Of a stretch of DNA of 46,150 nucleotides, positions 2,814 to 45,984 are shown in pieces. Position 1 is the first letter of the stretch; the number at the start of each line of letters is the position of its first letter. The notes under the pieces are model-generated. The model made no database searches, had not been told where the DNA came from, and was given only the letters and a program-made list of their open reading frames with translations. This DNA comes from Escherichia phage vB_EcoD_SU57. Both the position numbers and the translations under genes were made by a program. Where the stretch lies: the sequence record MT511058.1, one strand, 5' to 3'.

Positions 2814-3074
2814 ATGAGTAAGTACGATCGTGAAATTATTGGAATTGATGGCACGGTAACAACAGTGGATGTTTATCGCGTACTTGATGCATTTGGTGTA
2901 TCTGACCCAGCCACGCAGCATGCGATAAAGAAGATGCTCTGCGCAGGCTTGCGTGGCCACAAGGATTACCTTACCGACCTCAATGACTCGATTGATTCGT
3001 TACAGAAAGCTAAGGAGCTTTACGGGCAGAAGATGATTCATGAATCGTCTAAATCAATTCGGGTTGTTAAATAG
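2814..3074 (+). CDS. hypothetical protein (86 aa)
   Basis: ORF; stop TAG inside next box. Confidence 0.55.
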   Translation: MSKYDREIIGIDGTVTTVDVYRVLDAFGVSDPATQHAIKKMLCAGLRGHKDYLTDLNDSIDSLQKAKELYGQKMIHESSKSIRVVK

Positions 3075-5503: not shown

Positions 5504-5581
5504 GCTCTGCTAGCTCAATTGGACAGAAGCAACGACCTTCTAAGTCGTAGGTTACTGGTTCGAATCCAGTGCGGAGCGCCA
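5504..5581 (+). tRNA. tRNA-Arg (anticodon UCU, reads AGA)
   Basis: hand-folded cloverleaf: 7 bp acceptor stem with one G-U pair, D-loop with GG, anticodon loop CTTCTAA, T-arm ACTGG/TTCGAAT/CCAGT, encoded CCA. Confidence 0.75.
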
Positions 5582-5821: not shown

Positions 5822-5845
5822 AGCCCTCGCTTGAGGGCTTTTTTT
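5822..5845 (+). terminator. rho-independent terminator (AGCCCTC GCTT GAGGGCT plus T-run)
   Basis: GC-rich hairpin followed by T-run. Confidence 0.65.
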
Positions 5846-5856
5846 CGTCTGTAATA

Positions 5857-5865
5857 TGGTATAAT
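5857..5865 (+). promoter_or_regulatory. extended -10 promoter TGGTATAAT upstream of terS
   Basis: TGnTATAAT 23 nt upstream of ATG 5889; no box. Confidence 0.45.
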
Positions 5866-5888
5866 CTGACCTCAACAAAGGAGGATTT

Positions 5889-7983: not shown

Positions 7984-8023
7984 CACAAATTGCTAAACAC
8001 TAAAGCTACGGATGGCGTATAGT
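7980..8023 (+). promoter_or_regulatory. box ATAGCACAAATTGCTAAAC plus TATAGT at 22 nt
   Basis: box overlaps terL stop; leader GTATAGTTACTTCACACAAACGAGAGGAG identical to copy at 20020. Confidence 0.55.
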
Positions 8024-8052
8024 TACTTCACACAAACGAGAGGAGAAGAAAG

Positions 8053-8385
8053 ATGAAGGCAGTATTTAAAGGTTATAAAAAAGCTGGTCGTTTGGAATTT
8101 ACTATTGGTAAGATTTATGAGTTATCAGAAACACGCGGAGTGGGTGGATATATGGGGGTGACTGATGACAGTGGCTTTCGGGCAATATTTATCCCAGACA
8201 ACATCTATGATTTCGAGGTGTTGATCCCAGATGAATTTATCGGTAAAGAAAAGCAATTCAAATACTACATCAATGGTGAAGCTGTTTCTAAAGTCAAGTT
8301 CGATGATACGCTGTTATGCGTCAAGGAATTTAAATCTGATGGCATTGATACATCATCAATCAAGTTCGAAGTAAAATTCGAGTAA
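8053..8385 (+). CDS. hypothetical accessory protein (110 aa), paralog of 20054-20407
   Basis: shared FKGYKK N-terminus, KY.NG..V.K..FDD.LL and FEV.FE C-terminus; own box promoter and terminator. Confidence 0.6.
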   Translation: MKAVFKGYKKAGRLEFTIGKIYELSETRGVGGYMGVTDDSGFRAIFIPDNIYDFEVLIPDEFIGKEKQFKYYINGEAVSKVKFDDTLLCVKEFKSDGIDTSSIKFEVKFE

Positions 8386-8406
8386 CCACAAAAGCTATGA
8401 TAAACT

Positions 8407-8429
8407 AGCCCCTACATGGGGCTTTTTTT
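8407..8429 (+). terminator. rho-independent terminator (AGCCCC TACAT GGGGCT plus T-run)
   Basis: hairpin plus T-run, immediately followed by portal RBS. Confidence 0.65.
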
Positions 8430-8442
8430 ATTGGAGAAAAAC

Positions 8443-9705
8443 ATGGTCAAGACAGACAGCTACGCCAATATCTTTCTCGGCGGCAGTGATGGTAGTGAGA
8501 TTTACGGAAGTTTACAGAATCAAGCGCCTACAATTCTGGCTTCTCTTTATGCTGATAATGCGCTGGTTCGTAGAATTATCGACACAATCCCGGAGACGGC
8601 ATTGGCGGCAGGATTCCACATTGATGGCATTGATGATGAACCTGAATTCTGGTCTCGCTGGGACTACCTAGAGCTAACAAAACACATCAATGAAGCCTGG
8701 TCTTGGGCTAGATTGTTCGGAGGCTCTGCAATTGTTGCTATCGTTAAGGACAATAGAGCGTTAACAAGCCCGGTCAGAGAAGGTGCAGAACTTGAAACTG
8801 TACGCGTTTACGACCGCACACAAGTAAAAGTACAAACTCGAGAGGAGAATCCGCGCAACGCACGTTTTGGTAAGCCACTGACATATCGAATTACCACTAA
8901 CGAAAGCGATATGTTCTACGACGTGCACTACAGCCGCATTCACATTATTGATGGCGAGCGCTTGCCCAACGTAATGCGTCGGCAAAATGATGGCTGGGGC
9001 CGAAGTGTTCTGTCCAGTGACATTCTTGACTCAATCAAGGATTACACCAACTGCGAAAGGCTGGCGACTCAACTGCTCAAGCGTAAACAGCAAGCGGTCT
9101 GGAAAGTCAAGGACCTGGCATTGCTTTGTGATGATAGTGAAGGAGTTGGCGCGGCTCGTTTACGTCTCGCTCAAGTTGATAACAACAGCGGAGTTGGTCA
9201 GGCTATTGGGATTGACGCGGAATCTGAAGAATACAGCGTTCTAAACTCTGACATTGGCGGGATTGATGCGTTCCTGGATAAGAAGTTTGACAGAATCGTT
9301 GCTCTGAGCGGCATCCATGAAATAATCCTGAAGAACAAGAACGTCGGCGGCTTATCATCAAGCCAGAATACAGCGCTTGAGACATTCCATAAGCTAGTCG
9401 ATCGAAAGCGTAACGCTGAACTACTGCCGATTCTCGGGTTCATAATTCCGTTCATTTCAGACGAGCAAGAATGGTCTGTAGAGTTTAATCCTCTAGCTCA
9501 GGAATCAAGCAAGGATAAGGCGGAGATTCTGGAGAAGAACGTAAACAGCATTGCGGCACTAATTGCATCTGGCGCTATGGATACTAACGAAGCCCGTGAT
9601 ACACTACGCACTATCGCACCAGAAATTAAGATTGGTGATGGCGATATTGAACCTAAAGAACCAGTCCAGGAAGCAATGGCGCCGACAGAGGAACCTAATG
9701 AATGA
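8443..9705 (+). CDS. portal protein (putative)
   Basis: 420 aa gene directly after terL region; start moved to ATG 8443 after terminator and GGAG RBS. Confidence 0.65.
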   Translation: MVKTDSYANIFLGGSDGSEIYGSLQNQAPTILASLYADNALVRRIIDTIPETALAAGFHIDGIDDEPEFWSRWDYLELTKHINEAWSWARLFGGSAIVAIVKDNRALTSPVREGAELETVRVYDRTQVKVQTREENPRNARFGKPLTYRITTNESDMFYDVHYSRIHIIDGERLPNVMRRQNDGWGRSVLSSDILDSIKDYTNCERLATQLLKRKQQAVWKVKDLALLCDDSEGVGAARLRLAQVDNNSGVGQAIGIDAESEEYSVLNSDIGGIDAFLDKKFDRIVALSGIHEIILKNKNVGGLSSSQNTALETFHKLVDRKRNAELLPILGFIIPFISDEQEWSVEFNPLAQESSKDKAEILEKNVNSIAALIASGAMDTNEARDTLRTIAPEIKIGDGDIEPKEPVQEAMAPTEEPNE

Positions 9706-11376: not shown

Positions 11377-11399
11377 AAGCCTCCTTCGGGAGGTTTTTT
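11377..11399 (+). terminator. rho-independent terminator (AAGCCTCC TTCG GGAGGTTT plus T-run)
   Basis: hairpin plus T-run. Confidence 0.65.
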
Positions 11400-11438
11400 A
11401 TTGCCCGTCATCCCACCATTGCGTGGGCTAAAAACTCG

Positions 11439-11446
11439 TGTATAAT
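11439..11446 (+). promoter_or_regulatory. TATAAT -10 element upstream of major capsid gene
   Basis: TGTATAAT about 39 nt upstream of ATG 11485. Confidence 0.4.
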
Positions 11447-11484
11447 GAACCCGTAGACACCTAACTGAAAAGGAACAATAAAGA

Positions 11485-12437: not shown

Positions 12438-12461
12438 CGCCCTCTTAGGAGGGCTTTTTTT
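12438..12461 (+). terminator. rho-independent terminator (GCCCTC TTAG GAGGGC plus T-run)
   Basis: hairpin plus T-run after capsid gene. Confidence 0.65.
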
Positions 12462-12524
12462 CGCCTGTACCAAATCGTTTTGTTGAGTTATAATCACTGA
12501 ATCAGATAAACAAAGGAGATTAAA

Positions 12525-12770: not shown

Positions 12771-12811
12771 CAAACAGGGCGCTTCGGCGTCCTTTATTGT
12801 ATGGAGCTAAT

Positions 12812-13213
12812 ATGAATGATGCAATTTTGGCATTTATGCGATCGCTTGTTCCTGCGCTCAAAGCGGTGGATGACGAATCAATTAATGTATGGATTGATTT
12901 GGCACGTCTATACGTATGCGAAAGCAAGTTTGGCGCAGACAAAGACAAGGCTACCGCGCTTTATGCACTACACCTGATGCTTGCTGATGGCGCATTTAAG
13001 GGTGAGAATGAGGGTCTGGAAACATACAGTCGTAGAATGGCAAGTTACGCACTGAGTGGTGAGTTCTCTATCACTTATGATAACCAATCAGCAATCCAGG
13101 GTGACTTATCATCTTCCTCATGGGGCCGCATGTACAAAGCACTCCTCCGCAAGAAAGGTGGCGGCTTTGGATTGATTACTTCCGCTGCTGGCGGTGGGTG
13201 CGGTTGCCGATGA
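12812..13213 (+). CDS. head-tail connector/adaptor protein (putative, gp6-like)
   Basis: position and size; start at ATG 12812 after GGAG. Confidence 0.4.
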   Translation: MNDAILAFMRSLVPALKAVDDESINVWIDLARLYVCESKFGADKDKATALYALHLMLADGAFKGENEGLETYSRRMASYALSGEFSITYDNQSAIQGDLSSSSWGRMYKALLRKKGGGFGLITSAAGGGCGCR

Positions 13214-15074: not shown

Positions 15075-15082
15075 AACACAAA

Positions 15083-15102
15083 CCCTCTTCGGAGGGTTTT
15101 TT
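15083..15102 (+). terminator. rho-independent terminator (CCCTC TTCG GAGGG plus T-run)
   Basis: hairpin plus T-run; TATAAT at 15119-15124 follows. Confidence 0.65.
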
Positions 15103-15156
15103 ATTGCTACCAACCTGCTATAATGCAATCTCACAAACAATAAGAGGATTAAAAAA

Positions 15157-15471: not shown

Positions 15472-15791
15472 AACGAGCGGTGTATCTACAGTACCAGTCA
15501 GAGCCAACTGATGCAGAACTGGAAGCTATTGGGATGCGCCGCTCTGATTACGAAGATGAAGAGCCTGAGGCTTTGCACTTCGACGATAACATGATGAAGG
15601 CGTGGGACATTTACTGTTCAATGGCGACGCAGTGGAGAGTTGGAGCTAATGGGGCTACAGGACTTGATTACAACGTGCTAAATTTCCTCTTTAGAGTGTA
15701 TAATGTCTCAGAAGAAGAATTGGTGCTCAGCGATTTACGCATCCTTGAAGCTAAGGCTCTAGAGATGATGGATAACCTGAGAAAAAAATAA
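15157..15791 (+). CDS. tail assembly chaperone GT fusion via programmed -1 frameshift at A AAA AAC (15462-15468)
   Basis: canonical slippery heptamer 1 nt before the G stop; -1 frame stays open to 15791. Confidence 0.5.
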
Positions 15792-15814
15792 CCCGCTTCG
15801 GCGGGTTTTCTATT
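15792..15814 (+). terminator. hairpin (CCCGC TTCG GCGGG) with interrupted T-run
   Basis: stem-loop directly before tape measure RBS. Confidence 0.45.
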
Positions 15815-15826
15815 ATGGAGGCTTAG

Positions 15827-18805
15827 ATGGCAACAAATGAATTAGCCGGAATCACACTAGCCGTAGACGTATCGCAAGTAGACAGGGGAACGCAATCCCT
15901 GCAAAAGTTCAGACAGGCAAACCAGCAAGCCGCTTCCGGCATTAGTGAGTTCGTCAATGCAGAGCGGGTCGCAAAGACCCAGGCAAAAGACACGGCTCGC
16001 GCACTGGCTGAACAGCAAGCATCTTTAGCTAAATTGCAAACGGCCATTGACCCAACAGCGGCAAAGTTCCGTAAGCTGCAAGAGGCTGCTGTAGGTCTGG
16101 ATAAGGCATTCGCGGCTGGCGTAGTTCCTGATGAGGAGTTTTTCCGCTTAGGTGAGGCCCTTGAAACGCAGAACGCAAAGCTCGCTCGTTCACGTGCGGC
16201 GCTAACTGAAGAAGGTAGAGCAGCTGCTCAGGCTGCAAAAGATAAAGCAAAGGCAAAGGCTGAAGCTGACAGGTTCATTGCTTCACTTGAGCGCCAGGCT
16301 CAAGCGGCAACATTGACGCGCGAGGAGTACTTAAAGTTACAGGCTGCTCAGCTTGGCGTAAGTTCCCAGGCAGCACCAATCATTGACAGAATCGCCGACG
16401 CATCACAGAAGGCAAACACCCAATTAATTGCTCAGAGCAAGGCTTTTCAACGCTCTGGCTTAAGCGCAGGTCAATACAAGGCTGCAATCTCTCAATTGCC
16501 AGCGCAGATTACAGATATTGGAACATCACTTGCTGGCGGCATTCCGATTTGGCTTATTGCAATTCAGCAAGGTGGGCAGATCAAGGATGCATTTGGCGGT
16601 ATTGGCAACACCTTTAGATTCGCGCTTGCAGCCTTAAATCCATTCAATGTTGCTGTTGGTGTTTTGGGTGGGGCACTTGTAGCTCTTGGTGTTGGTGCGG
16701 CTCAGGCTGAAAGTGAATTCAGAGCATTAAACTCTGCTATTGCGTTCTCCAACAACTCTACAATCACATCAATCTCTCAGGTTAGAGAGTTGGTTAGCTC
16801 TGTTTCTGATGCAACAGGTGCCACCAGAGGGCTTGTGACTAGCATCGCAACAAGCCTTGTTGAGCAAGGAAACCTCACTCTAACGCAGATTGATAAGATT
16901 ACTAAATCAACCGCAAGATGGGCGCAGTTGACAGGTAAAGATGCAAAGGAGATTACTGGTTATTATAACCAGATTGCAAGCGACCCAATACAGGGCTTGG
17001 TTGATTTGGATAAGCGCTTTAACTTCCTCACGCAGGGGCAGTTGACAACAATCGAAAACCTGAGAAAGACAAAGGGGGAAGTAGAGGCCGTTACCGCCGC
17101 AATTGACATTTTCAGCAAGTCGCAGGAAGCCAACCTTAACGACATAGCGGAGCAGTTAACTCCACTTGAGTTAGCCTGGAATGATTTTAGAAATTACATC
17201 TCTGATATCTGGGATGCAATTAGTCGTAGAACGGTTGGGTCGCTAAACCTGTTTGTTGATGTAATCGCAGGAACAATTGAGCAAATCAGGGTGTTCATTA
17301 ACCAGGGTGATGCTCTGATTGGTGAATTCGTAATTAGCGCAACTCAGGCATTGCAGAATATCCCCGGCCTTGATGATGTCGGTGATGATGTAATCAAGAG
17401 TCAGCAGAAGATTATCGATGCCGCCAAGAAGCAAAACCTTGAGCTAGAAAAGTCTATCAAGGAGAGAGATGCCAGAATCAGAGAAGGGGAACTTGGTTAC
17501 GTTACTCGCAGAGAAAATCAGAATACCAATGAGCAATCTGGCACGGATGAGGGGTTTGCAAAAAGGAAGAAAGCACTTCAGGATGAACTTGATGCGATCA
17601 AGAAGAACAGGAAAGAAGAAAATGGTAGGGTTAAAGAGCAAAAAGACCTTACAATTGGTTATGAATCTGGCGTTCTAGCGCTTCAGGCTCAACTCAAGGT
17701 TCTTCAGGAAAATAGGGATATTGGCGCAGTAATAAGCAATGAGCGCAAGCAGTATCTTCAGGAAGAGGCCAAATTCAGGATTCTTGAGCAGAGACAACTT
17801 GATGGCTCAATTACCAAAGAGCAAGCAAGACTTCTCATTGAAAAGGATAAAGTTCTTGAGTTGGCAAGACAGAAGGCTGAGTTAGGTGACCAGATTGTTT
17901 TGCAGGAGCGCGCAAATAAGTTAGCTGAAGATAACCGCAAGAAGATTCTTCAGATTAACAATGAATCAAGTAACATCGACTTGGGTGCTGGGTTATCATC
18001 TCGTGAGCAGCAGAGGGCAAGAGAGATTCAGGCTCTTAAGTCCAATCAGGTTAATGCTGGCGGTTCTCTTGATGATGTTGATTTCCAGCAATTGCTAGAA
18101 GCAAGGAAGGAATACTACAAGCAGGAGGATAATCTTAGGTCAGACTGGCAGTCCGGTGTAACATCCACTCTCGCCGACTTGACAGAGAAGTACACTGACT
18201 ACAACCAGATCGCTAAGGACTTGACAGTTGCGGCATTCGACGGGATCACAGATCAAATCACTAACCTTGTAACCACTGGTGAGACCAATTTTAGGGAGTT
18301 CACATCAAACATCCTCAAAATGATTGCGAAGATTGCAACTCAGTTACTTTTGGTTAAGGCTATTGAATCTACAATCAAGAGCTTTGGTGGTGGGGGAGGT
18401 GATGCGTTTGGCTCTTTTGCGTCTGCTATAGGTTTCGCTGGTGGCGGATACACTGGTGACGGCGGGAAGTATCAGCCAGCAGGAACGGTACACCGCGGTG
18501 AGTTTGTATTCACAAAAGAAGCAACAAGCCGAATTGGTGTTAAGAACCTATACGCACTAATGAAGGGTTACGCAAACGGCGGCGCTGTAGGCGGTCCATC
18601 TGGTTATGCTAATGGCGGATTGGTTTCTGGTGGAACTGATGTTAATGTTAGCGGCATCACTGTTAACGTGAACTCTGGTGTTGGAAGTGATCCAGAACAA
18701 GCTAAGGCACTGCAAAATGGAGTTAAGGCAATCGTAGCTGAAGAGATTGCTCAGTCCTTCCAGCAGGGTGGCAGGGCGTATGCTTACCTTCGCGGATTCA
18801 ACTAA
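15827..18805 (+). CDS. tail tape measure protein
   Basis: 992 aa, Ala/Gln-rich coiled-coil N-half, Gly-rich C-terminus, between chaperone and gpM-like gene. Confidence 0.85.
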   Translation: MATNELAGITLAVDVSQVDRGTQSLQKFRQANQQAASGISEFVNAERVAKTQAKDTARALAEQQASLAKLQTAIDPTAAKFRKLQEAAVGLDKAFAAGVVPDEEFFRLGEALETQNAKLARSRAALTEEGRAAAQAAKDKAKAKAEADRFIASLERQAQAATLTREEYLKLQAAQLGVSSQAAPIIDRIADASQKANTQLIAQSKAFQRSGLSAGQYKAAISQLPAQITDIGTSLAGGIPIWLIAIQQGGQIKDAFGGIGNTFRFALAALNPFNVAVGVLGGALVALGVGAAQAESEFRALNSAIAFSNNSTITSISQVRELVSSVSDATGATRGLVTSIATSLVEQGNLTLTQIDKITKSTARWAQLTGKDAKEITGYYNQIASDPIQGLVDLDKRFNFLTQGQLTTIENLRKTKGEVEAVTAAIDIFSKSQEANLNDIAEQLTPLELAWNDFRNYISDIWDAISRRTVGSLNLFVDVIAGTIEQIRVFINQGDALIGEFVISATQALQNIPGLDDVGDDVIKSQQKIIDAAKKQNLELEKSIKERDARIREGELGYVTRRENQNTNEQSGTDEGFAKRKKALQDELDAIKKNRKEENGRVKEQKDLTIGYESGVLALQAQLKVLQENRDIGAVISNERKQYLQEEAKFRILEQRQLDGSITKEQARLLIEKDKVLELARQKAELGDQIVLQERANKLAEDNRKKILQINNESSNIDLGAGLSSREQQRAREIQALKSNQVNAGGSLDDVDFQQLLEARKEYYKQEDNLRSDWQSGVTSTLADLTEKYTDYNQIAKDLTVAAFDGITDQITNLVTTGETNFREFTSNILKMIAKIATQLLLVKAIESTIKSFGGGGGDAFGSFASAIGFAGGGYTGDGGKYQPAGTVHRGEFVFTKEATSRIGVKNLYALMKGYANGGAVGGPSGYANGGLVSGGTDVNVSGITVNVNSGVGSDPEQAKALQNGVKAIVAEEIAQSFQQGGRAYAYLRGFN

Positions 18806-18835: not shown

Positions 18836-19186
18836 ATGGCTATTGATACATTTAATTACTGCACTCAAGTCCAAAATGGAGGCGGCTCATTCTCTAACAC
18901 AAACAATGTGAGAATTGTTAGTTTTGGCAATGGTTACGAGCAGCGTGGAACGGGTGGATATCGCAGCAATAAGCGAAGCTACCAGATGACATACACCAAC
19001 AAGGACTGGCGCGAGGTGATGGACTTTTGCTTCAAACACATCATTACCCCTTTCTTCTGGACAACGCCGCAGGGCGATACATCCATGTTCGTTATTCAGC
19101 AGGATAGCATTAGCGTCACACCACTCAGCAAGGAAGTTCAGACTGTAAACATGCAATTCGTGGAAGTATTCAGCTCAATGCGTTAA
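18836..19186 (+). CDS. minor tail protein (lambda gpM-like)
   Basis: 116 aa, first gene after tape measure. Confidence 0.65.
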   Translation: MAIDTFNYCTQVQNGGGSFSNTNNVRIVSFGNGYEQRGTGGYRSNKRSYQMTYTNKDWREVMDFCFKHIITPFFWTTPQGDTSMFVIQQDSISVTPLSKEVQTVNMQFVEVFSSMR

Positions 19187-19190
19187 ACTA

Positions 19191-19212
19191 AGCCCCTATA
19201 TGGGGCTTTTTT
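19191..19212 (+). terminator. rho-independent terminator (AGCCCC TATAT GGGGCT plus T-run)
   Basis: near-identical to the terminator at 8407. Confidence 0.6.
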
Positions 19213-19225
19213 ATTGGAGAAATAT

Positions 19226-19981
19226 ATGTTAAGTCCAAAGTTTGAAAATCAGTTGCAAAGTCTTTTCCCAGGCGAGATTGTGACTCTAATCCAGGTTGAC
19301 GGAACCTCCTTTGGCTCTCTCGTTTATTCGTTCCATAATGAGAACATCTCTTACACACCAGAAGAGATCATGCTAGCCCAAATGAATGGCGAGCCACTAC
19401 CAGAGAAAACAATCACCTTTCGTGGTGAGGAGTATGGCCCAAGACCATTTGGAATCTCTGGAATCAATATGACGTCTGACGGCAAGGCAAACAAGGTTAC
19501 TCTGACAGTATCAAACGTAGACCAGCGCATTAGCGCACTGATTCGTACTTACAATGGATTGGTTAAGGCTAAGGTTACTATCTGGATTACTACTCGAGAT
19601 AATATCAATGAAGACGGAAGCATTGCTAATGGGGACTATCGCAGATTCGTTTACTTCATTGAGAGGCCTAAGCAGGTAGACTACAAAACGGCGTCATTTG
19701 AGCTTAGCTCACCGATGGATATGGATGGTATTTACATCCCCGCGAGACTTGTTCAGTCTGTTTGCTATTGGGCTTCTAGGGGTTGGTATCGTAGCGGTAA
19801 TGGTTGCGACTATGCTGGAAACGGATACTTCAATAAGGATGATGAGCCAGTATCAGACCCTTCATTAGACTTCTGCGCCGGAACGGTAAATAGCTGCAAG
19901 ATTAGATTTGGAGAGAATAATCAGCTTTCATTTGGCGGTTGTGCGGCGGCAAGCCTTCAGGCCAAAGCGAATCAGAGCTAA
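19226..19981 (+). CDS. minor tail protein (lambda gpL-like) with C-terminal Cys cluster
   Basis: start at ATG 19226 after TTGGAGA RBS; four C-terminal cysteines. Confidence 0.65.
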   Translation: MLSPKFENQLQSLFPGEIVTLIQVDGTSFGSLVYSFHNENISYTPEEIMLAQMNGEPLPEKTITFRGEEYGPRPFGISGINMTSDGKANKVTLTVSNVDQRISALIRTYNGLVKAKVTIWITTRDNINEDGSIANGDYRRFVYFIERPKQVDYKTASFELSSPMDMDGIYIPARLVQSVCYWASRGWYRSGNGCDYAGNGYFNKDDEPVSDPSLDFCAGTVNSCKIRFGENNQLSFGGCAAASLQAKANQS

Positions 19982-20025
19982 ACAGCACGAATTGCTAAAG
20001 GAGATTTAAAAAGATGGGGTATAGT
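19982..20025 (+). promoter_or_regulatory. box ACAGCACGAATTGCTAAAG plus TATAGT at 22 nt
   Basis: same leader as copy at 7980. Confidence 0.55.
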
Positions 20026-20053: not shown

Positions 20054-20407
20054 ATGTTCTACATTAAATTCAAAGGATACAAAAAAGAAAAAGAAAAGTG
20101 CACTGGTTTGTTTTTTGTTGGCCGCATTTACACCTGCGGTGTTGTTGACTCAAACATGTACTATCAGACGCAGGATGAGAATGGCAATATTGTAAAGTTT
20201 CAAAGTATTTTTCATGATGATTGTTACGACTTTTCAAGAATTGATACTCAGAGCAAGGTATTAGATGAGCATGATAACAAGATGAAATATCGAATGAATG
20301 GTGTTGATGTCACTAAGTCATTCTTTGATGATAAGCTACTGGAAGTTGAGCTGCTTAAATCAAGAGGTGTTTCAGTATTTATAGATTTTGAGGTTTATTT
20401 TGAATAA
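20054..20407 (+). CDS. hypothetical accessory protein (117 aa), paralog of 8053-8385
   Basis: shared FKGYKK, DD.YDF, KY..NG..V.K.FFDDKLL and FEV.FE blocks. Confidence 0.6.
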   Translation: MFYIKFKGYKKEKEKCTGLFFVGRIYTCGVVDSNMYYQTQDENGNIVKFQSIFHDDCYDFSRIDTQSKVLDEHDNKMKYRMNGVDVTKSFFDDKLLEVELLKSRGVSVFIDFEVYFE

Positions 20408-20427
20408 ACAAAATTAGTGTTAAACTA

Positions 20428-20453
20428 GGTCAATCGAAAGATTGGCCTTTTTT
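20428..20453 (+). terminator. rho-independent terminator (GGTCAATC GAAA GATTGGCC plus T-run)
   Basis: hairpin plus T-run followed by ATTGGAGA RBS of next gene. Confidence 0.6.
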
Positions 20454-20465
20454 ATTGGAGATAAA

Positions 20466-21224
20466 ATGTTAACACCAAAAGTTAAACTGGAAATCTTCCA
20501 GCACGCAAAGGAAGTTTATCCTCACGAATGCTGCGGAGTTGTTACGCAGAAGGGCAGGTCGCAGAAGTATCACAGAATCACAAACGCAAGCAAAGACCCT
20601 GAAAATGAATTTATTCTTGATTCAAATGAGTATGCAGATGTTCTCTTTGAGTTGGCTCACAATGAATCTATTGTTTACGTTGTTCACTCTCATACTGGCG
20701 ACGGTGCAACAACAAGACCAAGTCCTGCGGATATTTGTAGCTGCAATGAGTGCGAGATTCCTTATGTTATTGTAAGCATCCCAGAGGGAGACATGCGGAT
20801 TCTTGAGCCATCAAATATGCCACTGATTGGTCGACCGTGGGGTCTTGGTAGCTTCGATTGTTGGGAGTTGGTTATGGCATTTCACAAGAAATACGGCGTA
20901 AAGCTGAACGACTATCGCGTTAATTACCCATGGTGGGAGAAGAAGTACAGCGAAAATATCTATGACGACAATTGGGCTAAAGAAGGTTTTGAGCTAGTAA
21001 AAAACTCAGATATTCCCATTGGATCAATGATTATGATGCAGGTGCAAAGTGAGGTGACAAACCACGCCGGAATCTATATTGGCAACAACAGATTCATCCA
21101 CCATCTCTATGGTAAAATGAGTTCTGTAGATATCTACTCCGATTACTGGCGCGAGCGCACGGTGCGAATCGTTCGCCATAAGGATTTACCAGAGGATGTA
21201 ATTTATGACCCAGAAACTGATTGA
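20466..21224 (+). CDS. tail assembly protein (lambda gpK-like: MPN/JAMM plus NlpC/P60-like)
   Basis: HSH..D JAMM-like motif N-terminally, Cys/His peptidase-like C-half; start at ATG 20466. Confidence 0.7.
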   Translation: MLTPKVKLEIFQHAKEVYPHECCGVVTQKGRSQKYHRITNASKDPENEFILDSNEYADVLFELAHNESIVYVVHSHTGDGATTRPSPADICSCNECEIPYVIVSIPEGDMRILEPSNMPLIGRPWGLGSFDCWELVMAFHKKYGVKLNDYRVNYPWWEKKYSENIYDDNWAKEGFELVKNSDIPIGSMIMMQVQSEVTNHAGIYIGNNRFIHHLYGKMSSVDIYSDYWRERTVRIVRHKDLPEDVIYDPETD

Positions 21225-21777
21225 TATTAAGTTAGGCCTGTCGCTAGGCCGTAAGTTTGGCAAGATTCACCAAATGGCAGTGAGTAGCGTTCCCGAGGCA
21301 ATGAGAGCGCTTTGCTCTCAGATTCCCGCCCTCAAGGAGTTCATGAACAGTCATGTTGGTCAAAACACAAGGTACGCCGTGTTCGTTGATGGCAAAAATG
21401 TGAGCGAGCATCGAATCTCTGATTTTAGCGCCGTTCAGGAGATACGCATCTTACCAATCCCTCAAGGCCGCAAGTCAGGTGGGTTATTTCAGACAATCCT
21501 AGGTGCCGCGCTTATCACGGTTGGTATCTTTACTGGTCAGATTTATCTTGTTGGTGCTGGTGTGTCTTTGGCGGCGGGTGGTATTGCTCAGCTACTTTCA
21601 CCACAAGCAACTGGATTAAAGACCCAGAACAACCAAACGAGCAACCGTGCATCATATGCATTTGGCTCAGCAGTAAACACGGTAGCAGCTGGTTATCCGG
21701 TTTGTCTTCCATATGGCTACAGAACGGTTGGCGGCTCGGTATTTAGTGCCGGCAGCTACGCCGAAGACAATGCTTAA
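21205..21777 (+). CDS. tail assembly protein (lambda gpI-like)
   Basis: 190 aa with hydrophobic Gly-rich segment, between gpK-like and gpJ-like genes. Confidence 0.6.
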   Translation: MTQKLIDIKLGLSLGRKFGKIHQMAVSSVPEAMRALCSQIPALKEFMNSHVGQNTRYAVFVDGKNVSEHRISDFSAVQEIRILPIPQGRKSGGLFQTILGAALITVGIFTGQIYLVGAGVSLAAGGIAQLLSPQATGLKTQNNQTSNRASYAFGSAVNTVAAGYPVCLPYGYRTVGGSVFSAGSYAEDNA

Positions 21778-21806: not shown

Positions 21807-21857
21807 ATTTAGTGTAGAATGGCACAAATGATCAAAACAAACATGAGGCTTTGTGAT

Positions 21858-24800
21858 ATGGCTGAAGAGATTAAGATTTATGGTGCTAAGGGTGGTAGCC
21901 AGAAGCAGCACCAACCAGTGGAACAAGAAGACAACCTGATTTCATTAAACAAGGTTAAGGTATTACTTGCGGTTGCTGACGGCGAGGTGGATCCAAACTT
22001 CTCAATGAAGGATTTATACCTTGCTGACGTTCCGGTACAAAACCAGGACGGCAGCTACAACTACGATGGTGTTCGAGCTGAGTTTCGCGCTGGCACGCAG
22101 TATCAGGACTATATCGCTGGCCTTGATGGTGCAAACTCAGAGATTCAGGCCTCCAGAGAAATCACAAACGACACCCCGTACATCATTGCGGTTAACAATA
22201 CTCAGCTATCAGCAATTAGAGTTAAGCTGTTTTGGCCTAGACTGGTTAAGCAAGAGAGTAATGGCGACCTGAACGGAACTACATGCGAGTATGCAATTGA
22301 TCTTTCTGTTAATGGTGGCGCTTATCAGGAATATACTCGCGGAGTTGCTAACGGCAAGACCACTACAGGTTACGACCGCAGCATTCGCGTGAACCTTCCG
22401 GCAGAGTTCGATAGCGCCCTGGTTCGAATTCGTAAAATTACGCCAGATTCGACAAGTAGCACGCTGGTGAATGGTATGCAGATTACCACCTATCAGGAAG
22501 TAATCGATGCTAAGTTCCGCTATCCGCTTACAGCACTTGTTTACGTTGAGTTTAGCTCTGACTTGTTCCCTAACGGAATCCCGACAATCTCAATCAAGAA
22601 GCGATGGAAATTGATTCAGGTTCCTACAAACTACGACCCGGAGACAAGAACTTACAGTGGGACATGGAATGGCCTTTTCAAAATGGCGTGGTCAAATAAC
22701 CCGGCATGGGTTTTATATGACTTAGTAACAAACCGACGTTACGGACTTGACCAAAGAGAATTGGGTGTAGAGATTGATAAGTGGGGTCTTTACGAAGCTG
22801 CGCAATTTTGTGACCAGATGGTGCCGGATGGTAAGGGGGGCTTAGAGCCTCGTTATCTTTGCGATATGGTTGTGCAGAACAAGGTTGAGGCATACACGCT
22901 AATTCGTGATATCTGTTCAATCTTTCGTGGCCTGACTTTCTATGACGGCGAAAAGATTGGCATCGTGGTTGATAAGCCTCGTAACCCATCTTACATCTTC
23001 ACCAATGATAACGTTGTAAACGGATTGTTCAGTCGCACCTTTGCCAGTGATAAAAGCCTTTACACCACGGCAAACGTTCAGTTTGATGATGTAGAGAACA
23101 ACTATCAGCAGGATGTTGAGCCAGTTTTTGAACTCGAGGCTACTCGCAGATTTGGCTTTAACCCTGTTGACCTCACGGCTATTGGCTGTACTCGCAGAAG
23201 TGAGGCAAACAGACGTGGCAGATGGCTCCTGAAAACCAACCTGAGAAGCGAAACCATTAGCTTTACTACCGGGCTGGAAGGCATGATTCCTATGATTGGC
23301 GAGGTGATTGCGGTTAATGACGCGGCATGGTCTAGCAACTATCAGTTAAACCTTTCCGGCCGTATTGAATCAGCTCAGGGGTTGCAGGTTTTCACCCCGT
23401 TTAAAGTTGACGCAGCGCCTGGTGACAGAATTCTTCTGAACAAGCCTGACGGAAGCCCAGAGGCAAGAACTATTGCCAGCGTTTCGGAAGATGGTAGAAC
23501 AATCAACCTTAATACTGCCTTTAGTTTTGTAGCTCAGACAGACACGGTATTTGCAATCGACAAGGATAATCTTGCTCTTCAGCAATACGTTGTGACCGGG
23601 ATTCAAAAAGCAGATTCTGACGGTTCGGATTCATTCCAGTACACAATTACTGCTGTAGAGTATGACCCGAACAAGTATGACGAGATTGACTACGGCGTAA
23701 ACATTGTTGACCGTCCAACTTCAATTGTTGAGCCTGACAGATTGTCGCCGCCTGAGAACTTAACAGTGTCAAGCTACAGTAAGGTTGTTCAGGGATTGTC
23801 AGTTGAGACAATGGTTATCGGATGGGATAAAGCGCCATACGCCAAAACCTACAATGTTCAGTGGAGGAAAGAAAATGGTAACTGGATTAACGTACCCAGA
23901 ACAGCTAGCACAGAGGTTGATATCGAAGGTATTTACGCAGGAATCTATGACGTTAGGGTTCGTAGCGTATCAGATACTGAAAACGTGTCTGCCTGGTCTG
24001 ACATTGTAACGGTATCGCTAACTGGCAAGATTGGTAGGCCATCTGCACCTACGGTTGTCACGGCTTCAACTGATGAGGTATTTGGCATCCGTGTTAAGTG
24101 GGGTTTCCCTGATGGATCCGGTGACACTGCTTACACTGAACTTCAGCAGGTTCCTGATAATGGTGACGGTACTTACAATCCTGATAACGCAAGTCTGTTG
24201 ACCTTACTTCCGTACCCAGCTTATGAATACTGGCACACGCCTATTCAGCCAGGCAAGGTTATCTGGTATCGCGCAAGATTGATTGACAGAATCGGCAACA
24301 CTTCTGACTGGTCTGATTTTGCTAGAGGCATGAGTACTGACGATGCCAATATTATCAACGAATACATCAAGGTTGATATTGAGGGTTCGGAAGGATTTAA
24401 ATACCTTGAGCAGAATGCGATTCAAAAGAATCAGGACATTCAGAATCAGGCAGAGTCAATTCTTGAGAACGCACTGGCGAATGACACTGATGTTCGTCGC
24501 ATGACCAAGGAGAACGGTAAGCGTAAGGCTGAATATGTTCAGGCTGTTAATCTCATAGCTGATGAAACTCAGGCGCGTGTAGAGGCTCTTACGCAGCTTA
24601 AAGCGCAGATTGATGATGAGGTTGTGTCATCGATTACAGAAGTTCAGACTGCATTAGCAACAGAGACAGAAGCAAGAACTACTGCCGACACTCAGCTATC
24701 AGCAAGACTTGGTGAAAACGAGGCTGCACTAAACCAGAAGCTGGACGCTTTTTCTAACGCCACATCGACTGGTGTACAGTATGGGATTAGTCTTGGCCTG

Positions 24801-25244
24801 AAATACAACGGACAGACTTATTCATCCGGCATGAGTATGGAGCTTGTTGGCACTGGTGGAAATGTTCGCAGTCAGTTCATATTTGACGCAAACAGGTTCG
24901 CAATCAGTAACGGAATTGGTTCTGGTTCCGGTCAGTGGCAACTCCCCTTTGTTGTCGAGAACGGAAACGTAATCATCCAAAGCGCAGTAATCGGCGACGG
25001 ATCAATTACTAACGCGAAGATTGGTAATATAATTTCATCAAATGATTATGTGGCGGGCTCTCAGGGATGGGCGATACTGAAAAGTGGTGCGTCAGAGTTC
25101 AATAACACAACTGTAAGGGGCAATCTTTACGCTAACAATGGTAACTTTGCTTTTAACGGAACCAATAACACGGTTCAGATTAACAATAACGGAATAACTG
25201 TAAACTTACCGAACGGAGGGAGAGTTGTAGTTGGAGTGTGGTAA
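21858..25244 (+). CDS. tail tip / host specificity protein (lambda gpJ-like)
   Basis: 1128 aa after gpI-like gene; start at ATG 21858 after GAGG RBS. Confidence 0.8.
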   Translation: MAEEIKIYGAKGGSQKQHQPVEQEDNLISLNKVKVLLAVADGEVDPNFSMKDLYLADVPVQNQDGSYNYDGVRAEFRAGTQYQDYIAGLDGANSEIQASREITNDTPYIIAVNNTQLSAIRVKLFWPRLVKQESNGDLNGTTCEYAIDLSVNGGAYQEYTRGVANGKTTTGYDRSIRVNLPAEFDSALVRIRKITPDSTSSTLVNGMQITTYQEVIDAKFRYPLTALVYVEFSSDLFPNGIPTISIKKRWKLIQVPTNYDPETRTYSGTWNGLFKMAWSNNPAWVLYDLVTNRRYGLDQRELGVEIDKWGLYEAAQFCDQMVPDGKGGLEPRYLCDMVVQNKVEAYTLIRDICSIFRGLTFYDGEKIGIVVDKPRNPSYIFTNDNVVNGLFSRTFASDKSLYTTANVQFDDVENNYQQDVEPVFELEATRRFGFNPVDLTAIGCTRRSEANRRGRWLLKTNLRSETISFTTGLEGMIPMIGEVIAVNDAAWSSNYQLNLSGRIESAQGLQVFTPFKVDAAPGDRILLNKPDGSPEARTIASVSEDGRTINLNTAFSFVAQTDTVFAIDKDNLALQQYVVTGIQKADSDGSDSFQYTITAVEYDPNKYDEIDYGVNIVDRPTSIVEPDRLSPPENLTVSSYSKVVQGLSVETMVIGWDKAPYAKTYNVQWRKENGNWINVPRTASTEVDIEGIYAGIYDVRVRSVSDTENVSAWSDIVTVSLTGKIGRPSAPTVVTASTDEVFGIRVKWGFPDGSGDTAYTELQQVPDNGDGTYNPDNASLLTLLPYPAYEYWHTPIQPGKVIWYRARLIDRIGNTSDWSDFARGMSTDDANIINEYIKVDIEGSEGFKYLEQNAIQKNQDIQNQAESILENALANDTDVRRMTKENGKRKAEYVQAVNLIADETQARVEALTQLKAQIDDEVVSSITEVQTALATETEARTTADTQLSARLGENEAALNQKLDAFSNATSTGVQYGISLGLKYNGQTYSSGMSMELVGTGGNVRSQFIFDANRFAISNGIGSGSGQWQLPFVVENGNVIIQSAVIGDGSITNAKIGNIISSNDYVAGSQGWAILKSGASEFNNTTVRGNLYANNGNFAFNGTNNTVQINNNGITVNLPNGGRVVVGVW

Positions 25245-26569: not shown

Positions 26570-26670
26570 GTATACACGTAACCGATGTAACTCGATGTAT
26601 GCAATCTCATCCGCGGAAAATGATATACGCGCTGTTACGCAAATTTACGCATTGGTTACACTATAATATC

Positions 26671-26727
26671 TATATATATCAATCCTTTACTCTTATTATT
26701 ATTATTATATATATTACTATGTATATC
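26671..26727. repeat. AT-rich repeat block copy 2 (matches 125-180)
   Basis: direct sequence comparison. Confidence 0.6.
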
Positions 26728-27426: not shown

Positions 27427-28388
27427 CTTTCAGAGTTTACACACGAGAGGAACTAAGCAATGAGTCTTACCACTCCGAGACTGAACACATCTCCGGTAGC
27501 TCACTTGTTGAGATTATCCAGGGTTCTCCTGCGAAGTGGAAATTTAAGCAGCGAAATAATGATAGCAAGGCGCTTAAATTCGGAACGCTTAGTCACACGT
27601 ACATCCTGGAAGGTGACATGTTTGATAAAGAATACCTTCGAGCTACAGACCTTGACGCGATTGAAGGCTTAATTACAAGCCAGACAGGTTTAGCTTCAGC
27701 ACTTAAAAAAGTTGGTGTAGCTGGAACGTCAGGGAAGGGCTATAGCGAGCTTGTAGAGATGATGTATCGCTCCAGTGAGGATTGGCCTGTTAAATGGTTA
27801 ATTGAGCAACAAGATAGCTCTCAGGCGCTTGTGGAGGGCAAGGAGCTAGTTAGCGCATCAGATTACGACAAGGTTGTCTCGATGCGCGAGGTTCTTTGCA
27901 ACATTCCGGCATACAACGCAATAGTGAATAGTGAGACGGCGCAGAAAGAGTTATCAATCTTCGGTGAGATTCTTGGTATCGGAGTGAAGATTCGAATCGA
28001 CCACGTTGATGTTGTTGATGGTGTTGTCAAGATGACAGATTACAAAACGACCGCCGACGCAAGCCCGGAAGGATTCGGTAAGTCTGCATTCAATCACGGC
28101 TACCTTGCAAAAATGGCACTTCAGCGCGATCTGTTTGTGAAAGCATTTAACGAGAAGCGCAAGGTTGTTGTAGGATTGCTGGCGCAGGAGAAGGTGGAGC
28201 CATACCTACCAATGCTGTACACCTTGACGGATGAGCAGCTTCGAATCGGTCGCTTGCAGTATCTTGAGGCGTTGGCTACTTACAAGAAGTGCAAAGAGTT
28301 GGATATCTGGCCTGGCTACTCGAACGGCATTGCAGAGCAAGAATTGATGATTCCTGAGTGGGCTATTAAGCAGTACAAGGAAATCTAA
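27423..28388 (+). CDS. PD-(D/E)xK family exonuclease (recombination exonuclease, putative)
   Basis: RIDHVDVVDG...DYKT nuclease-like motifs; adjacent to Erf-like and SSB genes. Confidence 0.6.
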   Translation: MTFRVYTREELSNESYHSETEHISGSSLVEIIQGSPAKWKFKQRNNDSKALKFGTLSHTYILEGDMFDKEYLRATDLDAIEGLITSQTGLASALKKVGVAGTSGKGYSELVEMMYRSSEDWPVKWLIEQQDSSQALVEGKELVSASDYDKVVSMREVLCNIPAYNAIVNSETAQKELSIFGEILGIGVKIRIDHVDVVDGVVKMTDYKTTADASPEGFGKSAFNHGYLAKMALQRDLFVKAFNEKRKVVVGLLAQEKVEPYLPMLYTLTDEQLRIGRLQYLEALATYKKCKELDIWPGYSNGIAEQELMIPEWAIKQYKEI

Positions 28389-29153: not shown

Positions 29154-29591
29154 ATGCACGTAATTACTGGTCAGATTCGACGCGCTCCATTCACTAAAGA
29201 AGGTCAGAATGCTAATGGTACCTGGAAAATGTTTGCGGTTGATTTGAGTGAGCGATACAAAGATAAAGATGGTCAGACTCAGTATAGTAACTATCGCGCA
29301 GTCTTCTTCGCGAAAGAGTCAATGTTAGATTGGTATAATGAGGCATTTCAAGAAGGTAAAGTTGTTAGCGTTAGCGCAGAAAGCTTGTCTGTTGATGTTA
29401 GAGATAAAGATGGAAAGACTTACGTAACGGTTAACATGAACAACCCTCGACTTGAGTTTAGTCAGCGTGGTGACAATGTAGGTCAGCAACAGAATCAACA
29501 GAAGCCACAACAACAGCAACAACAGCAACAACAACAACAACAGCAACAACCGAAGCAACAACAGAACTTTGAGGATGACATCCCGTTCTGA
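29154..29591 (+). CDS. ssb: single-stranded DNA-binding protein with poly-Gln linker
   Basis: OB-fold-like N-terminus, Gln-rich linker, acidic C-terminal tail EDDIPF. Confidence 0.85.
   Translation: MHVITGQIRRAPFTKEGQNANGTWKMFAVDLSERYKDKDGQTQYSNYRAVFFAKESMLDWYNEAFQEGKVVSVSAESLSVDVRDKDGKTYVTVNMNNPRLEFSQRGDNVGQQQNQQKPQQQQQQQQQQQQQQPKQQQNFEDDIPF
29484..29565 (+). repeat. CAA/CAG simple-sequence tract encoding poly-Q in SSB
   Basis: 14 consecutive Gln codons plus flanking Gln-rich codons. Confidence 0.8.
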
Positions 29592-31958: not shown

Positions 31959-31981
31959 TGTGTAGAGTCTCCATTTGTAAA

Positions 31982-32025
31982 ATAGCACGAATTGCTAAAG
32001 TGGATTGTAGCATCTTTGAGTCATA
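31982..32025 (+). promoter_or_regulatory. perfect consensus box ATAGCACGAATTGCTAAAG on + strand, pointing away from adjacent reverse-strand tail fiber gene; weak hexamer GTCATA at 22 nt
   Basis: only copy oriented against its neighbouring gene. Confidence 0.4.
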
Positions 32026-32045
32026 AAAAAACCTCCCGTAGGAGG
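32024..32045 (-). terminator. rho-independent terminator for reverse-strand primase gene (CCTCC CGTA GGAGG, T-run on - strand)
   Basis: hairpin adjacent to primase stop codon. Confidence 0.55.
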
Positions 32046-32969
32046 TTAGTCTAGCAATTCGCTTGCCTTGTATATTCGCTTTCTTATGCCTGACTTGAAA
32101 AAATTATCATCATTTGGCACTACCACATCAAGATCGCGATCGTCAGCAACGGCGAGTAAATCAAAAGCGTGGCGAGTGCAAGCGATGCGTAACTTGTATT
32201 TTCTAAGCGAGTAAGCAACCATTTCCATGTTGTAGCTGGAGTAGCAAACAAGCACGCAGCGGTTGCCAGTAGCAAGATGAACGCGAACACCATCAATCCA
32301 ATTATCGACAAGATAAGCGTACTCATCATTTTTAAAGGTGCCAATAACAGCAACAGACTGGCGAGTATAATCTTTTGCAGCATAACTAACATCTCCCTCC
32401 TCATTGATAAACATTACATTGCACATCTCTTCTGATATTCCGTCACTATAAGCCATAAAGCACGGAACGGCGTGGATTAATTCACCTGATTTCGTCCTGC
32501 CAACATCAAAACCGAACTCGCTATAGATACCCTCGTATGTACTGAGAGGAGTTGATTCTACTCTTTCCGTCCTTTCCATTATCTCTAAGCATCTTTCGTG
32601 GTCAATCTGAGCGCCCATTTTGTATAGCTTGGTTCTTGATGCTTGCTTGTTTGCCTTATTAACAACTTCTACTGGAATAAGGTTTAGCCACTCACCGAGA
32701 ACGTCGATACATTCACTGAATGACTCTCCTCGCATCTTCTGTAACCACAAAATTCCATCGCCTGAGCCGCACTGGTTGCAGATAATTCCACCATCACCTT
32801 CCTCGCTAACCTTGTTGGTCCACCTAGCCCTGTCGTTGCCACCGCAATAAATGCATGGTTGATGCTTCTTAGTCTGGAAGAACTTTGGGTCAGCGCCGCA
32901 GATGTTGATAAGCGCCTTATCCCACAAGCCGCGCATTCTTGGTAAAACCTCTTTCTTATCGTAGTGCAT
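32046..32969 (-). CDS. DNA primase (putative; Zn-ribbon CxxC..CxxC plus Toprim-like region)
   Basis: CIYCGGNDRARW...CNQCGSG zinc-binding motif; position next to helicase. Confidence 0.5.
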   Translation of the reverse strand: MHYDKKEVLPRMRGLWDKALINICGADPKFFQTKKHQPCIYCGGNDRARWTNKVSEEGDGGIICNQCGSGDGILWLQKMRGESFSECIDVLGEWLNLIPVEVVNKANKQASRTKLYKMGAQIDHERCLEIMERTERVESTPLSTYEGIYSEFGFDVGRTKSGELIHAVPCFMAYSDGISEEMCNVMFINEEGDVSYAAKDYTRQSVAVIGTFKNDEYAYLVDNWIDGVRVHLATGNRCVLVCYSSYNMEMVAYSLRKYKLRIACTRHAFDLLAVADDRDLDVVVPNDDNFFKSGIRKRIYKASELLD

Positions 32970-35597: not shown

Positions 35598-36017
35598 ATG
35601 AATATTACAGATAAGGTCGATTACATTGAATTTTACCCTGGCCCGGTTAAGTCATGCCCTAAGGAGGATGACGAACAAATCTTTTGCTCTGATTGGGTTA
35701 AGTATAACTACCCAGATATGGTATTTTTCCATTGCGTGAATGAGGGAAAGAAAACCATTGGTCAAGCAAGAAAAGACCAGGCTAAGGGGCTTCTAAAAGG
35801 CGTATCAGACTGTATGTTTCTTATTCCTGAATCACTTCGAGGTAAGTATCCTTTCGGGGCTATAGAGCTAAAGAGGGCTGGCAAAACTCAAGCAAGTCCA
35901 GTCAGCGAAGAACAGAAAGCATTTCTGAAAAGTGTAGTGGAATCAGGCGGTTTCTCGGCAGTCGCCTACGGACGTGAGGGTTTTCTTGCAGCATTCAAAG
36001 AAATGATTTCAAAATAG
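35598..36017 (+). CDS. VRR-NUC domain nuclease
   Basis: D...ELK PD-(D/E)xK-like core in about 140 aa protein directly after helicase. Confidence 0.65.
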   Translation: MNITDKVDYIEFYPGPVKSCPKEDDEQIFCSDWVKYNYPDMVFFHCVNEGKKTIGQARKDQAKGLLKGVSDCMFLIPESLRGKYPFGAIELKRAGKTQASPVSEEQKAFLKSVVESGGFSAVAYGREGFLAAFKEMISK

Positions 36018-45938: not shown

Positions 45939-45984
45939 ACTATATCCTCACCAGATAGATATGTCTTTAGCAAAAAGTGCTATT
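45939..45984 (-). promoter_or_regulatory. box variant (AATAGCACTTTTTGCTAAAG, reverse) plus TATAGT at 23 nt
   Basis: outermost promoter of the reverse-strand block. Confidence 0.5.

Follow-up and report, generated by a model that had tools for sequence, protein, structure and literature searches.

The morons of lambdoid phages, attributed to Juhala et al. 2000 and Hendrix et al. 2000, are reportedly extra genes that have their own promoter and terminator and an atypical composition. In T4-type phages, the repeated motifs termed PeSLs extend from the stop codon of the upstream gene to the Shine-Dalgarno (SD) sequence and ATG of the downstream gene, lie at the boundaries of indels and replacements and were proposed to serve as homology arms, and their terminators were proposed to stop accessory transcription from spilling into virion genes (PMC2839356, PMC4122927). 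The late region of phage T1 has been described in terms of "transcriptons" (Roberts et al. 2004, cited from PMC11447400, the reannotation of TLS). Here we analysed the complete genome of Escherichia phage vB_EcoD_SU57 (MT511058.1; 46,150 nt, hereafter the window), a virulent T1-like phage of the Drexlerviridae, Braunvirinae, with a focus on a junction of hairpin, T-run, SD and start codon that recurs before the genes for the portal protein, gpL and gpK. The SU57 genome paper lists eight terminators, and the organisation of junctions and slots goes unmentioned there (PMC7718038). We consider it probable, at roughly 0.72, that this junction is a terminator fused to the ribosome-binding site (RBS) of the next gene, which forms the fixed 3' boundary of slots for variable accessory units. 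The closest relatives are Braunvirinae phages such as ACG-M12, EC3a, BEK6, G8 and Rtp, with approximately 85-95% nucleotide identity.

Anatomy of the junctions

All three junctions lie on the + strand and follow one layout, i.e., TAAACTA, a GC hairpin, six or seven T, ATTGGAGA, 4-5 nt and ATG. Junction 1, leading from terL and the first of two cassettes to the portal gene (8401-8445), comprises TAAACTA at 8401-8407, the hairpin AGCCCCTACATGGGGCT at 8407-8423, T7 at 8423-8429, GGAGA at 8433-8437 and the ATG at 8443. Junction 2, leading from gpM to gpL (19184-19228), comprises TAAACTA at 19184-19190, the hairpin AAGCCCCTATATGGGGCTT at 19190-19208, T6, GGAGA at 19216-19220 and the ATG at 19226; SU57 has no cassette at this place, and the TAA stop codon of gpM forms the first bases of TAAACTA. 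Junction 3, leading from cassette 2 to gpK (20421-20468), comprises TAAACTA at 20421-20427, the hairpin AGGTCAATCGAAAGATTGGCCT at 20427-20448, T6, GGAGA at 20457-20461 and the ATG at 20466. An earlier interpretation made from the letters of the genome (the sequence-only reading) had placed look-alike junctions at the starts of these three genes and called two of the hairpins nearly identical. All three were found there, and the hairpins of junctions 1 and 2, identical in the stem, differ at one base of the loop, with about 40 of 45 nt identical over the junction. The stem of junction 3 has 9 bp, and its sequence is unrelated to the stems of the other two. The uniform (A/T)AAA tail described before the ATG had to be dropped, as the bases after GGAGA are AAAAC, AATAT and TAAA at junctions 1, 2 and 3, respectively. 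The shared upstream TAAACTA and a promoter-like repeat before both cassettes had escaped that reading.

In the window, the 13-mer TTTTTATTGGAGA has exactly three copies, and the composite TAAACTA-N(15-26)-TTTTTATTGGAGA gives three matches against 0.00 in 100 dinucleotide-preserving shuffles, which confirmed that the likeness of the three junctions is real and non-random. Their stems consist of 6-9 bp with 4-5 GC pairs, the loops of 4-5 nt, and the T6-T7 run stands immediately 3' of the stem. The folding energies are -14 to -15 kcal/mol when the flanks are included (z -2.7 to -3.8) and -11.8 to -12.6 kcal/mol for the stem-loops without them. All are intergenic, co-oriented with the genes and 0-35 nt downstream of a stop codon. 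Judged by these hallmarks, each junction is a canonical intrinsic terminator. Terminators at such sites are not new, since the homologous sites in EC3a, MM01 and AKS96 have already been annotated as terminators by others (ARNold, TransTermHP, WebGeSTer).

Junctions 1 and 3 follow the open reading frames (ORFs) of cassette 1 (8053-8385, + strand, 110 aa, 36.9% GC) and cassette 2 (20054-20407, + strand, 117 aa, 33.1% GC), both of which belong to phrog_14592. The two ORFs are paralogous, as had been recognised from the letters (38% amino acid identity, E 5e-11), and both are AT-rich outliers below the 5th percentile of 340-nt windows of the structural region, which average 45.8 +/- 3.2% GC. Searches of the cassette proteins against Pfam, NCBIfam and PADLOC gave no significant match and no nuclease domain. 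Both names given to the product of cassette 2 are taken as tentative, "putative tail fiber protein" from the entry of SU57 itself and "virion structural protein" from those of RefSeq relatives; for the PHROGs label "virion structural protein" no proteomic evidence was traced, and the proteomics paper on Rogue1 identifies other proteins.

Comparison of the slots in related phages

The slot between gpL and gpK is empty in EC3a and five other genomes (L010-L012, L017, L018), where 10-13 nt without a hairpin separate the two genes, e.g., TAA-GGGGAAATAA-ATG. It is filled in SU57, ACG-M12 and BEK6, in which this spacer is exactly replaced by the repeat, the ORF and the hairpin junction; in SU57, cassette 2 sits exactly between the gpL stop codon and the gpK ATG and consists of repeat, ORF, hairpin, T-run and ATTGGAGATAAA. 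As judged from these empty and filled sites, the L-K hairpin junction arrived together with its cassette. Other occupants of the slot are HNH endonuclease genes (Rtp, DTL, L014), which have no terminator and extend right to the gpK start codon, and a reverse-strand gene of 180 aa (IME253). The varied content, ranging from empty sites through cassettes and HNH genes to the reverse-strand gene, makes L-K a general insertion hotspot.

Between terL and the portal gene, BEK6, DTL and MM01 have no cassette and keep TAAACTA-AGCCCC..GGGGC-T5-6-ATTGGAGAAA-ATG directly after the terL stop codon, and the same junction is present in two further cassette-less IMG/VR genomes (L031, L042). Cassette 1 therefore sits upstream of an independently existing junction. 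The slot is filled in most relatives, including the distant phiEB49 and Sd1. Rtp and AugustePiccard have divergent or stacked units there; the stack in AugustePiccard runs repeat-HNH-repeat-ORF and then into the same junction, with the stop codon of the HNH gene inside the next repeat. The string AAATAGC at the empty site was considered as the remnant of a deleted repeat and rejected, because it consists of an AAA codon of terL followed by the stop codon TAG and stands in filled and empty sites alike.

At the boundary of gpM and gpL, the junction is present in all sampled Braunvirinae loci and in the Rogunavirus AKS96, with no trace of a repeat or an ORF, and its 14 distinct variants share TAAACT, T5ATTGGAGA and ATG without change. 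In the more distant L017 and L018, two unrelated ORFs (phrog_24631, phrog_29402), each behind a repeat, lie between the gpM stop codon and the same junction. In the Webervirus KPN N141, M-L is occupied by a terminator whose sequence is unrelated, and termination at this boundary thus looks older than any cassette. By their occurrence with or without inserts, the terL-portal and M-L junctions are assessed as old resident features of the Braunvirinae/Rogunavirinae. The idea of the sequence-only reading that the junction is the seam of a cassette insertion stood at L-K, where empty sites have no hairpin, and fell at terL-portal and M-L, where relatives without a cassette keep the junction.

It is unlikely that every junction is such a seam, with a terminator/RBS that is always cassette-borne and with cassette-less sites, the M-L junction of SU57 included, as deletion scars. 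An origin of this kind would agree with the L-K junction, which demonstrably comes with the cassette, with the filling of terL-portal in most relatives as far as phiEB49 and Sd1, and with the filling of M-L in L017 and L018. However, the AAATAGC common to the repeat and the empty terL-portal site provides no evidence of a scar, and the M-L junction, with the gpM stop codon inside TAAACTA, is free of repeat and ORF traces throughout the sampled Braunvirinae and AKS96. The unrelated terminator of the Webervirus at M-L also speaks against it, and unrelated ORFs before the same junction fit a resident site better than a cargo-borne one.

The HNH genes observed in the slots of relatives each stand behind a variant of the repeat, namely at L-K (L009, L014, L016), at terL-portal (L054:780-1325) and between the tape measure gene and gpM (TMP-M; L002:1378-1875).

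Repeat and promoter-like element

Each cassette is preceded by a conserved element of about 62 nt, which consists of AAATAGCAC(G/A)AATTGCTAAA(G/C), a spacer of 19 nt, the box TATAGT and a leader with GAGGAG at its end. At the 5' boundary of cassette 1, the direct repeat AAATAGCACAAATTGCTAAAC (7978-7998, + strand) contains the terL stop codon TAG (7981-7983), and the -10-like box TATAGT (8018-8023, + strand) is followed by the conserved leader and SD (8024-8052). At the 5' boundary of cassette 2, the first two bases (19980-19981) of the repeat AAACAGCACGAATTGCTAAAG (19980-20000, + strand) are the end of the gpL stop codon TAA, and the box TATAGT (20020-20025, + strand) and its leader are 97% identical to those of cassette 1. 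The genome has about 17 copies of the element, in which the distance from TTGCTA to the -10-like box is always 22-23 nt. Copies of the repeat include those at 1824, 3071, 7980, 19982, 28389, 33513, 36014 and 40044 on the + strand and those at 45983, 45138, 44111, 42447 and 26568 on the - strand. Outside the structural region, the element precedes the genes for the ERF recombinase, a helicase and a DUF3987 primase-like protein; within the structural region (5.9-25.2 kb), its only two copies are those before the two cassettes. The stop codon of the upstream gene lies in or against the start of the repeat, (T)AAATAGCAC, at 7981-7983, 19979-19981, 28386-28388, 36015-36017, 38953-38955, 3072-3074 and 1527-1529, and as the repeat supplies or abuts this codon, the promoter-like element is fused to the end of the gene before it.

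The repeat is already known from TLS, T1, Rtp and Rogue1, for which it was described as aaATAGCACnnnTTGnTAAAA, a direct repeat of 21 nt about 76 nt 5' of start codons, and its function is left open in the passages of the TLS reannotation that deal with it (PMC11447400). The repeat/-10 element of the SU57 cassettes has no -35 box at sigma-70 spacing, and TTGCTA is not a sigma-70 -35 box because 22-23 nt is too far from the -10-like box. The repeat holds the inverted repeat TAGCA-N5-TGCTA, centred near -43, and a conserved leader (TTAC..CAYCGAAACGAGAGGAG) follows the box. This geometry suggests a putative promoter that depends on a dimeric activator. A promoter for a phage RNA polymerase was considered as well and rejected, because no RNA polymerase gene is reported in the papers on SU57 and TLS (PMC7718038, PMC11447400).

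A perfect + strand copy of the repeat at 31982-31998 lies between two - strand genes (31970-32070) and shares bases with the start of the tailspike ORF (787 aa); a - strand hairpin with a T-run 5' of the tailspike gene adjoins this copy. The SU57 authors questioned whether the tailspike gene gets transcribed (PMC7718038).

Conservation and exchange of the units

Among 17 distinct junction variants, TAAACT, TTTTTATTGGAGA and ATG are invariant, and the stem and loop vary. Stem conservation was judged by folding each variant; an alignment in MAFFT put stems of unequal length out of register. Compensatory changes were found in the stems (GCCCC/GGGGC, GACCC/GGGTC, GGCCC/GGGCC and GGTCAATC/GATTGGCC), with C:G, A:T or G:C as the third pair depending on the lineage, and 15 of the 17 variants hold -10 to -13 kcal/mol.

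Sliding identity between SU57 and Rtp across the terL-portal unit is 0.77-0.97 over the end of terL, the repeat, the -10 box and the leader (7940-8044), 0.23-0.67 over the body of the cassette 1 ORF (8045-8363) and 0.97-1.00 over 8364-8468, a stretch that takes in the final ~20 nt of the ORF, the hairpin and the beginning of the portal gene; most values in the two regulatory flanks are 0.9-1.0. Cassette boundaries in several phages coincide with the repeat on the left and with TAAACTA-hairpin on the right, where identity shifts from ~0.4 to ~1.0. The phrog_14592 family is itself mosaic, with 45 conserved C-terminal aa, variable SH3-like N-terminal halves and variable central inserts, and its hybrid members (P0039, P0042-P0045) combine a terL-portal-like N-terminus with an L-K-like C-terminus. 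Presence of the cassette at the two sites is independent, as EC3a has it at terL-portal only and BEK6 at L-K only. SU57 encodes an ERF-family annealing protein. Conserved flanks, a variable ORF body and mosaic proteins are the pattern expected if ORF bodies were exchanged by recombination via the regulatory arms.

Convergence would require neither shared descent nor a role in exchange, as an A-tract, GC hairpin, U-tract and SD would be called for wherever an efficient terminator stands just 5' of a gene, and we regard it as distinctly improbable for the SU57 junctions. It could account for TAAACTA-hairpin-TTTTTATTGGAGA in unrelated contigs (the L020 group, L023, L027, L029), for the TTTTTTATT that seven SU57 terminators have in common 3' of the stem and for the L-K stem being unlike the other two. 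It does not explain, however, why junctions 1 and 2 match in the sequence and length of the stem as well as over ~40 of 45 nt, why the flanks stay invariant over the 17 variants while the stems drift, or why cassette edges fall exactly at the repeat and TAAACTA, with the step in identity there.

Unrelated environmental phage contigs (L020, L033, L034, L036, L039, L043, L048) contain TAAACTAAATAGGGTGTCTCATGACACCCTTTTTTATTGGAGAA..ATG, with the same flank bases and a different hairpin. This match of the flanks is probably convergence on the design of terminator plus SD.

Termination, read-through and junction classes

The sequence-only reading saw intrinsic terminators inside the late operon and took them to imply read-through or attenuation, and the logic of the hairpin, the U-tract and the short distance to the start codon agrees with it. 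From the end of the T-run to the ATG there are 12-14 nt in 17 of 17 variants, and no promoter fits into this gap. The portal protein, gpL and gpK would therefore be made from read-through transcripts, which in turn would mean that the element attenuates rather than blocks, or that it is overcome at late times of infection. With no room for a hidden promoter 3' of the T-run, the three junctions offer a clean test of the late passage through about ten terminators. A main role of the hairpins as stabilisers or processing sites of mRNA 3' ends, with the U-tract as an S1-binding translational enhancer that sets protein ratios after transcription, is very improbable, for although the U-tract stands 3-4 nt before the SD in every variant with rigid spacing to the ATG, weak-stem variants persist in nature and the essential genes directly downstream argue against efficient termination, the junctions have all hallmarks of intrinsic terminators and are called as such by the three programs in relatives, and no RNase site or Rfam family was detected. 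The two functions are not mutually exclusive.

Junctions with the order hairpin, T-run, SD and ATG (class A, + strand) begin at 8407, 12776, 15790, 19190 and 20427. The weaker ones lie at 12776-12815, after the DUF7444 gene (hairpin, TTTATTGTATGGAG, ATG), and at 15790-15829, before the tape measure gene (hairpin, TTTTCTATTATGGAGG, ATG). In class B, the hairpin and T-run are followed 10-50 nt 3' by a perfect TATAAT box; these junctions are situated before terS (5822-5870), before the major capsid gene (11380-11450), after the major capsid gene (12439-12500) and after the tail tube gene (15080-15125), the first and the last with a canonical TGn extended -10. The copies at 5823 and 12439, members of repeat family D20, share 84% identity along 31 nt. 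The two classes agree with the transcriptons described for T1 (PMC11447400) and with the 18-21 terminators per genome that were reported in Rogunaviruses (PMC4070988). The Rfam scan of the whole window yielded a tRNA gene at 5504-5578 (RF00005, 57.8 bits) as its only match and no RNA family at the junctions. This gene, tRNA-Arg according to the SU57 paper (PMC7718038), lies just 5' of the terminator-promoter junction of terS.

The Pfam scan, which covered 19 SU57 proteins, places the M-L and L-K junctions within a lambda-like tail module. It comprises the tape measure gene (15827-18805), gpM (18836-19186; PF05939, a core gene), gpL (19226-19981; PF05100, with the stop codon TAA at 19979-19981), gpK (20466-21224; JAB and NlpC/P60), gpI (21205-21777) and gpJ (21819-25244). 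Elsewhere in the window, an AT-rich repeat of 35-70 nt (TACA.TA.AATA.CTATATATATCAA.C.TTTACT...TTATTATTATTATT) occurs in two copies 26.5 kb apart, one near the genome end (111-178) and the other at the boundary of divergent gene blocks (26657-26725); possible roles of the pair are those of an origin, a pac site or a regulatory region. The ORF at 29154-29591 contains a CAA/CAG (poly-Gln) repeat tract at 29484-29573.

Discussion

The anatomy and conservation of the junctions, their presence and absence among relatives, the insertion boundaries and the identity profile lead us to propose that a rho-independent terminator, made up of an A-tract, a GC stem-loop and U6-7, is joined at each junction to the SD and ATG of the essential virion gene that follows, and that the junction would be standard punctuation in the late region of T1-like phages. 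The short stretch from the stop codon to the terminator may, at terL-portal and M-L, act as a permissive slot, in which accessory units, each led by the 21-nt repeat, the -10 box and the leader, could be inserted, stacked and exchanged. The resident terminator/RBS would then have a triple role as the transcription stop of the unit, the conserved 3' homology arm and the RBS of the downstream gene. The L-K copy presumably arose when a paralogous cassette together with the terminator/RBS module exactly replaced the spacer of 10-13 nt from the gpL stop to the gpK start. The terminator of a cassette would keep transcripts from the repeat-type promoter out of the virion genes, and the transcripts for the portal protein, gpL and gpK would read through an element that attenuates.

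Several points weigh against this proposal. By presence and absence among relatives, the slots may reflect a deletion that left the terminator behind as well as an insertion into an old terminator site. Two natural variants have weakened stems (-4.7 kcal/mol in L014 and -3.4 kcal/mol in ACG-M12), and a strong hairpin is therefore not indispensable. The L-K stem is unrelated to the other two, so that the common origin of the three junctions rests on ~20 nt of flanks, and the same 20 specified bases surround unrelated hairpins in unrelated marine phage contigs, which makes convergence on the flank sequence possible. A literature search on transcriptomes and antitermination in T1-like phages found nothing relevant.

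A wider and more tentative interpretation, which we rate as possible and do not favour, is that Drexlerviridae use a two-part exchange system analogous to the T4 PeSLs. The repeat, -10 box and leader would be its 5' arm and TAAACTA-hairpin-T6-ATTGGAGA its 3' arm, and accessory genes, homing endonucleases among them, would be swapped, stacked and duplicated by the phage-encoded ERF recombinase at a small number of fixed slots in the essential virion operon. This interpretation includes a mechanism of late read-through or antitermination, which would be needed because five terminators without promoters stand in series before essential tail genes.

The proposal of a terminator/RBS module at the edge of slots gives a base-level account of how a virulent T1-like phage could fit accessory genes into its structural operon with the neighbours undisturbed, as the insert extends from the stop codon of the gene before it to a terminator bearing the RBS of the gene after it. 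Insertions are naturally tolerated in the terL-portal, M-L and L-K slots, whose regulatory arms are already in place, and this could aid the engineering of Drexlerviridae, and the junctions mark places in which to seek variable accessory or counter-defence genes.

Comparison with known systems

Free-standing HNH homing endonucleases occupy the same kinds of sites in relatives, i.e., L-K in Rtp and DTL, terL-portal in AugustePiccard and TMP-M in ACG-M12; unlike these insertions, the SU57 cassettes have no nuclease domain. The cassettes resemble morons in that they lie between genes that are adjacent in relatives (at L-K in EC3a, L010-L012, L017 and L018; at terL-portal in BEK6, DTL and MM01), with a predicted promoter-like element 5', a terminator 3' and an AT-rich composition. 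They differ from morons as SU57 is virulent and has no prophage expression, as the promoter-like element is of the phage's repeat type rather than a generic sigma-70 promoter, and as the terminator is resident at two of the three sites and was brought with the gene at L-K only.

As with PeSLs, regulatory motifs of SU57 stand at replacement boundaries between close relatives, and the terminator likewise has a proposed role against spill-over of transcription. A PeSL is a single composite of a consensus sigma-70 promoter and a stem-loop, whereas in SU57 the promoter-like element lies ~400 nt 5' of the hairpin, at the opposite end of the ORF, and lacks a -35 box at normal spacing. The SU57 slots belong to the core structural operon and not to hyperplastic regions. 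Mini-circles and terminator activity have been demonstrated for PeSLs, whereas the activity of the SU57 terminators is predicted.

A close match is offered by the transcriptons of the T1 family, to which SU57 belongs. There, too, rho-independent terminators punctuate the late region and the repeat lies ~72-76 nt 5' of the start codons in the direction of transcription (PMC11447400), and both SU57 cassettes are units running from repeat to terminator. The parts of that source describing transcriptons do not mention a terminator-RBS junction that recurs, is kept at both terL-portal and M-L or bounds slots (PMC11447400). The junction is no new kind of element and is a well-behaved example of known phage genome organisation. 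What the comparison of genomes adds is modest: one terminator/RBS module appears to be kept at two core boundaries across two subfamilies, it forms the apparent fixed 3' edge of slots with varied cargo, and its third copy, as the L-K sites indicate, travelled with a duplicated cassette.

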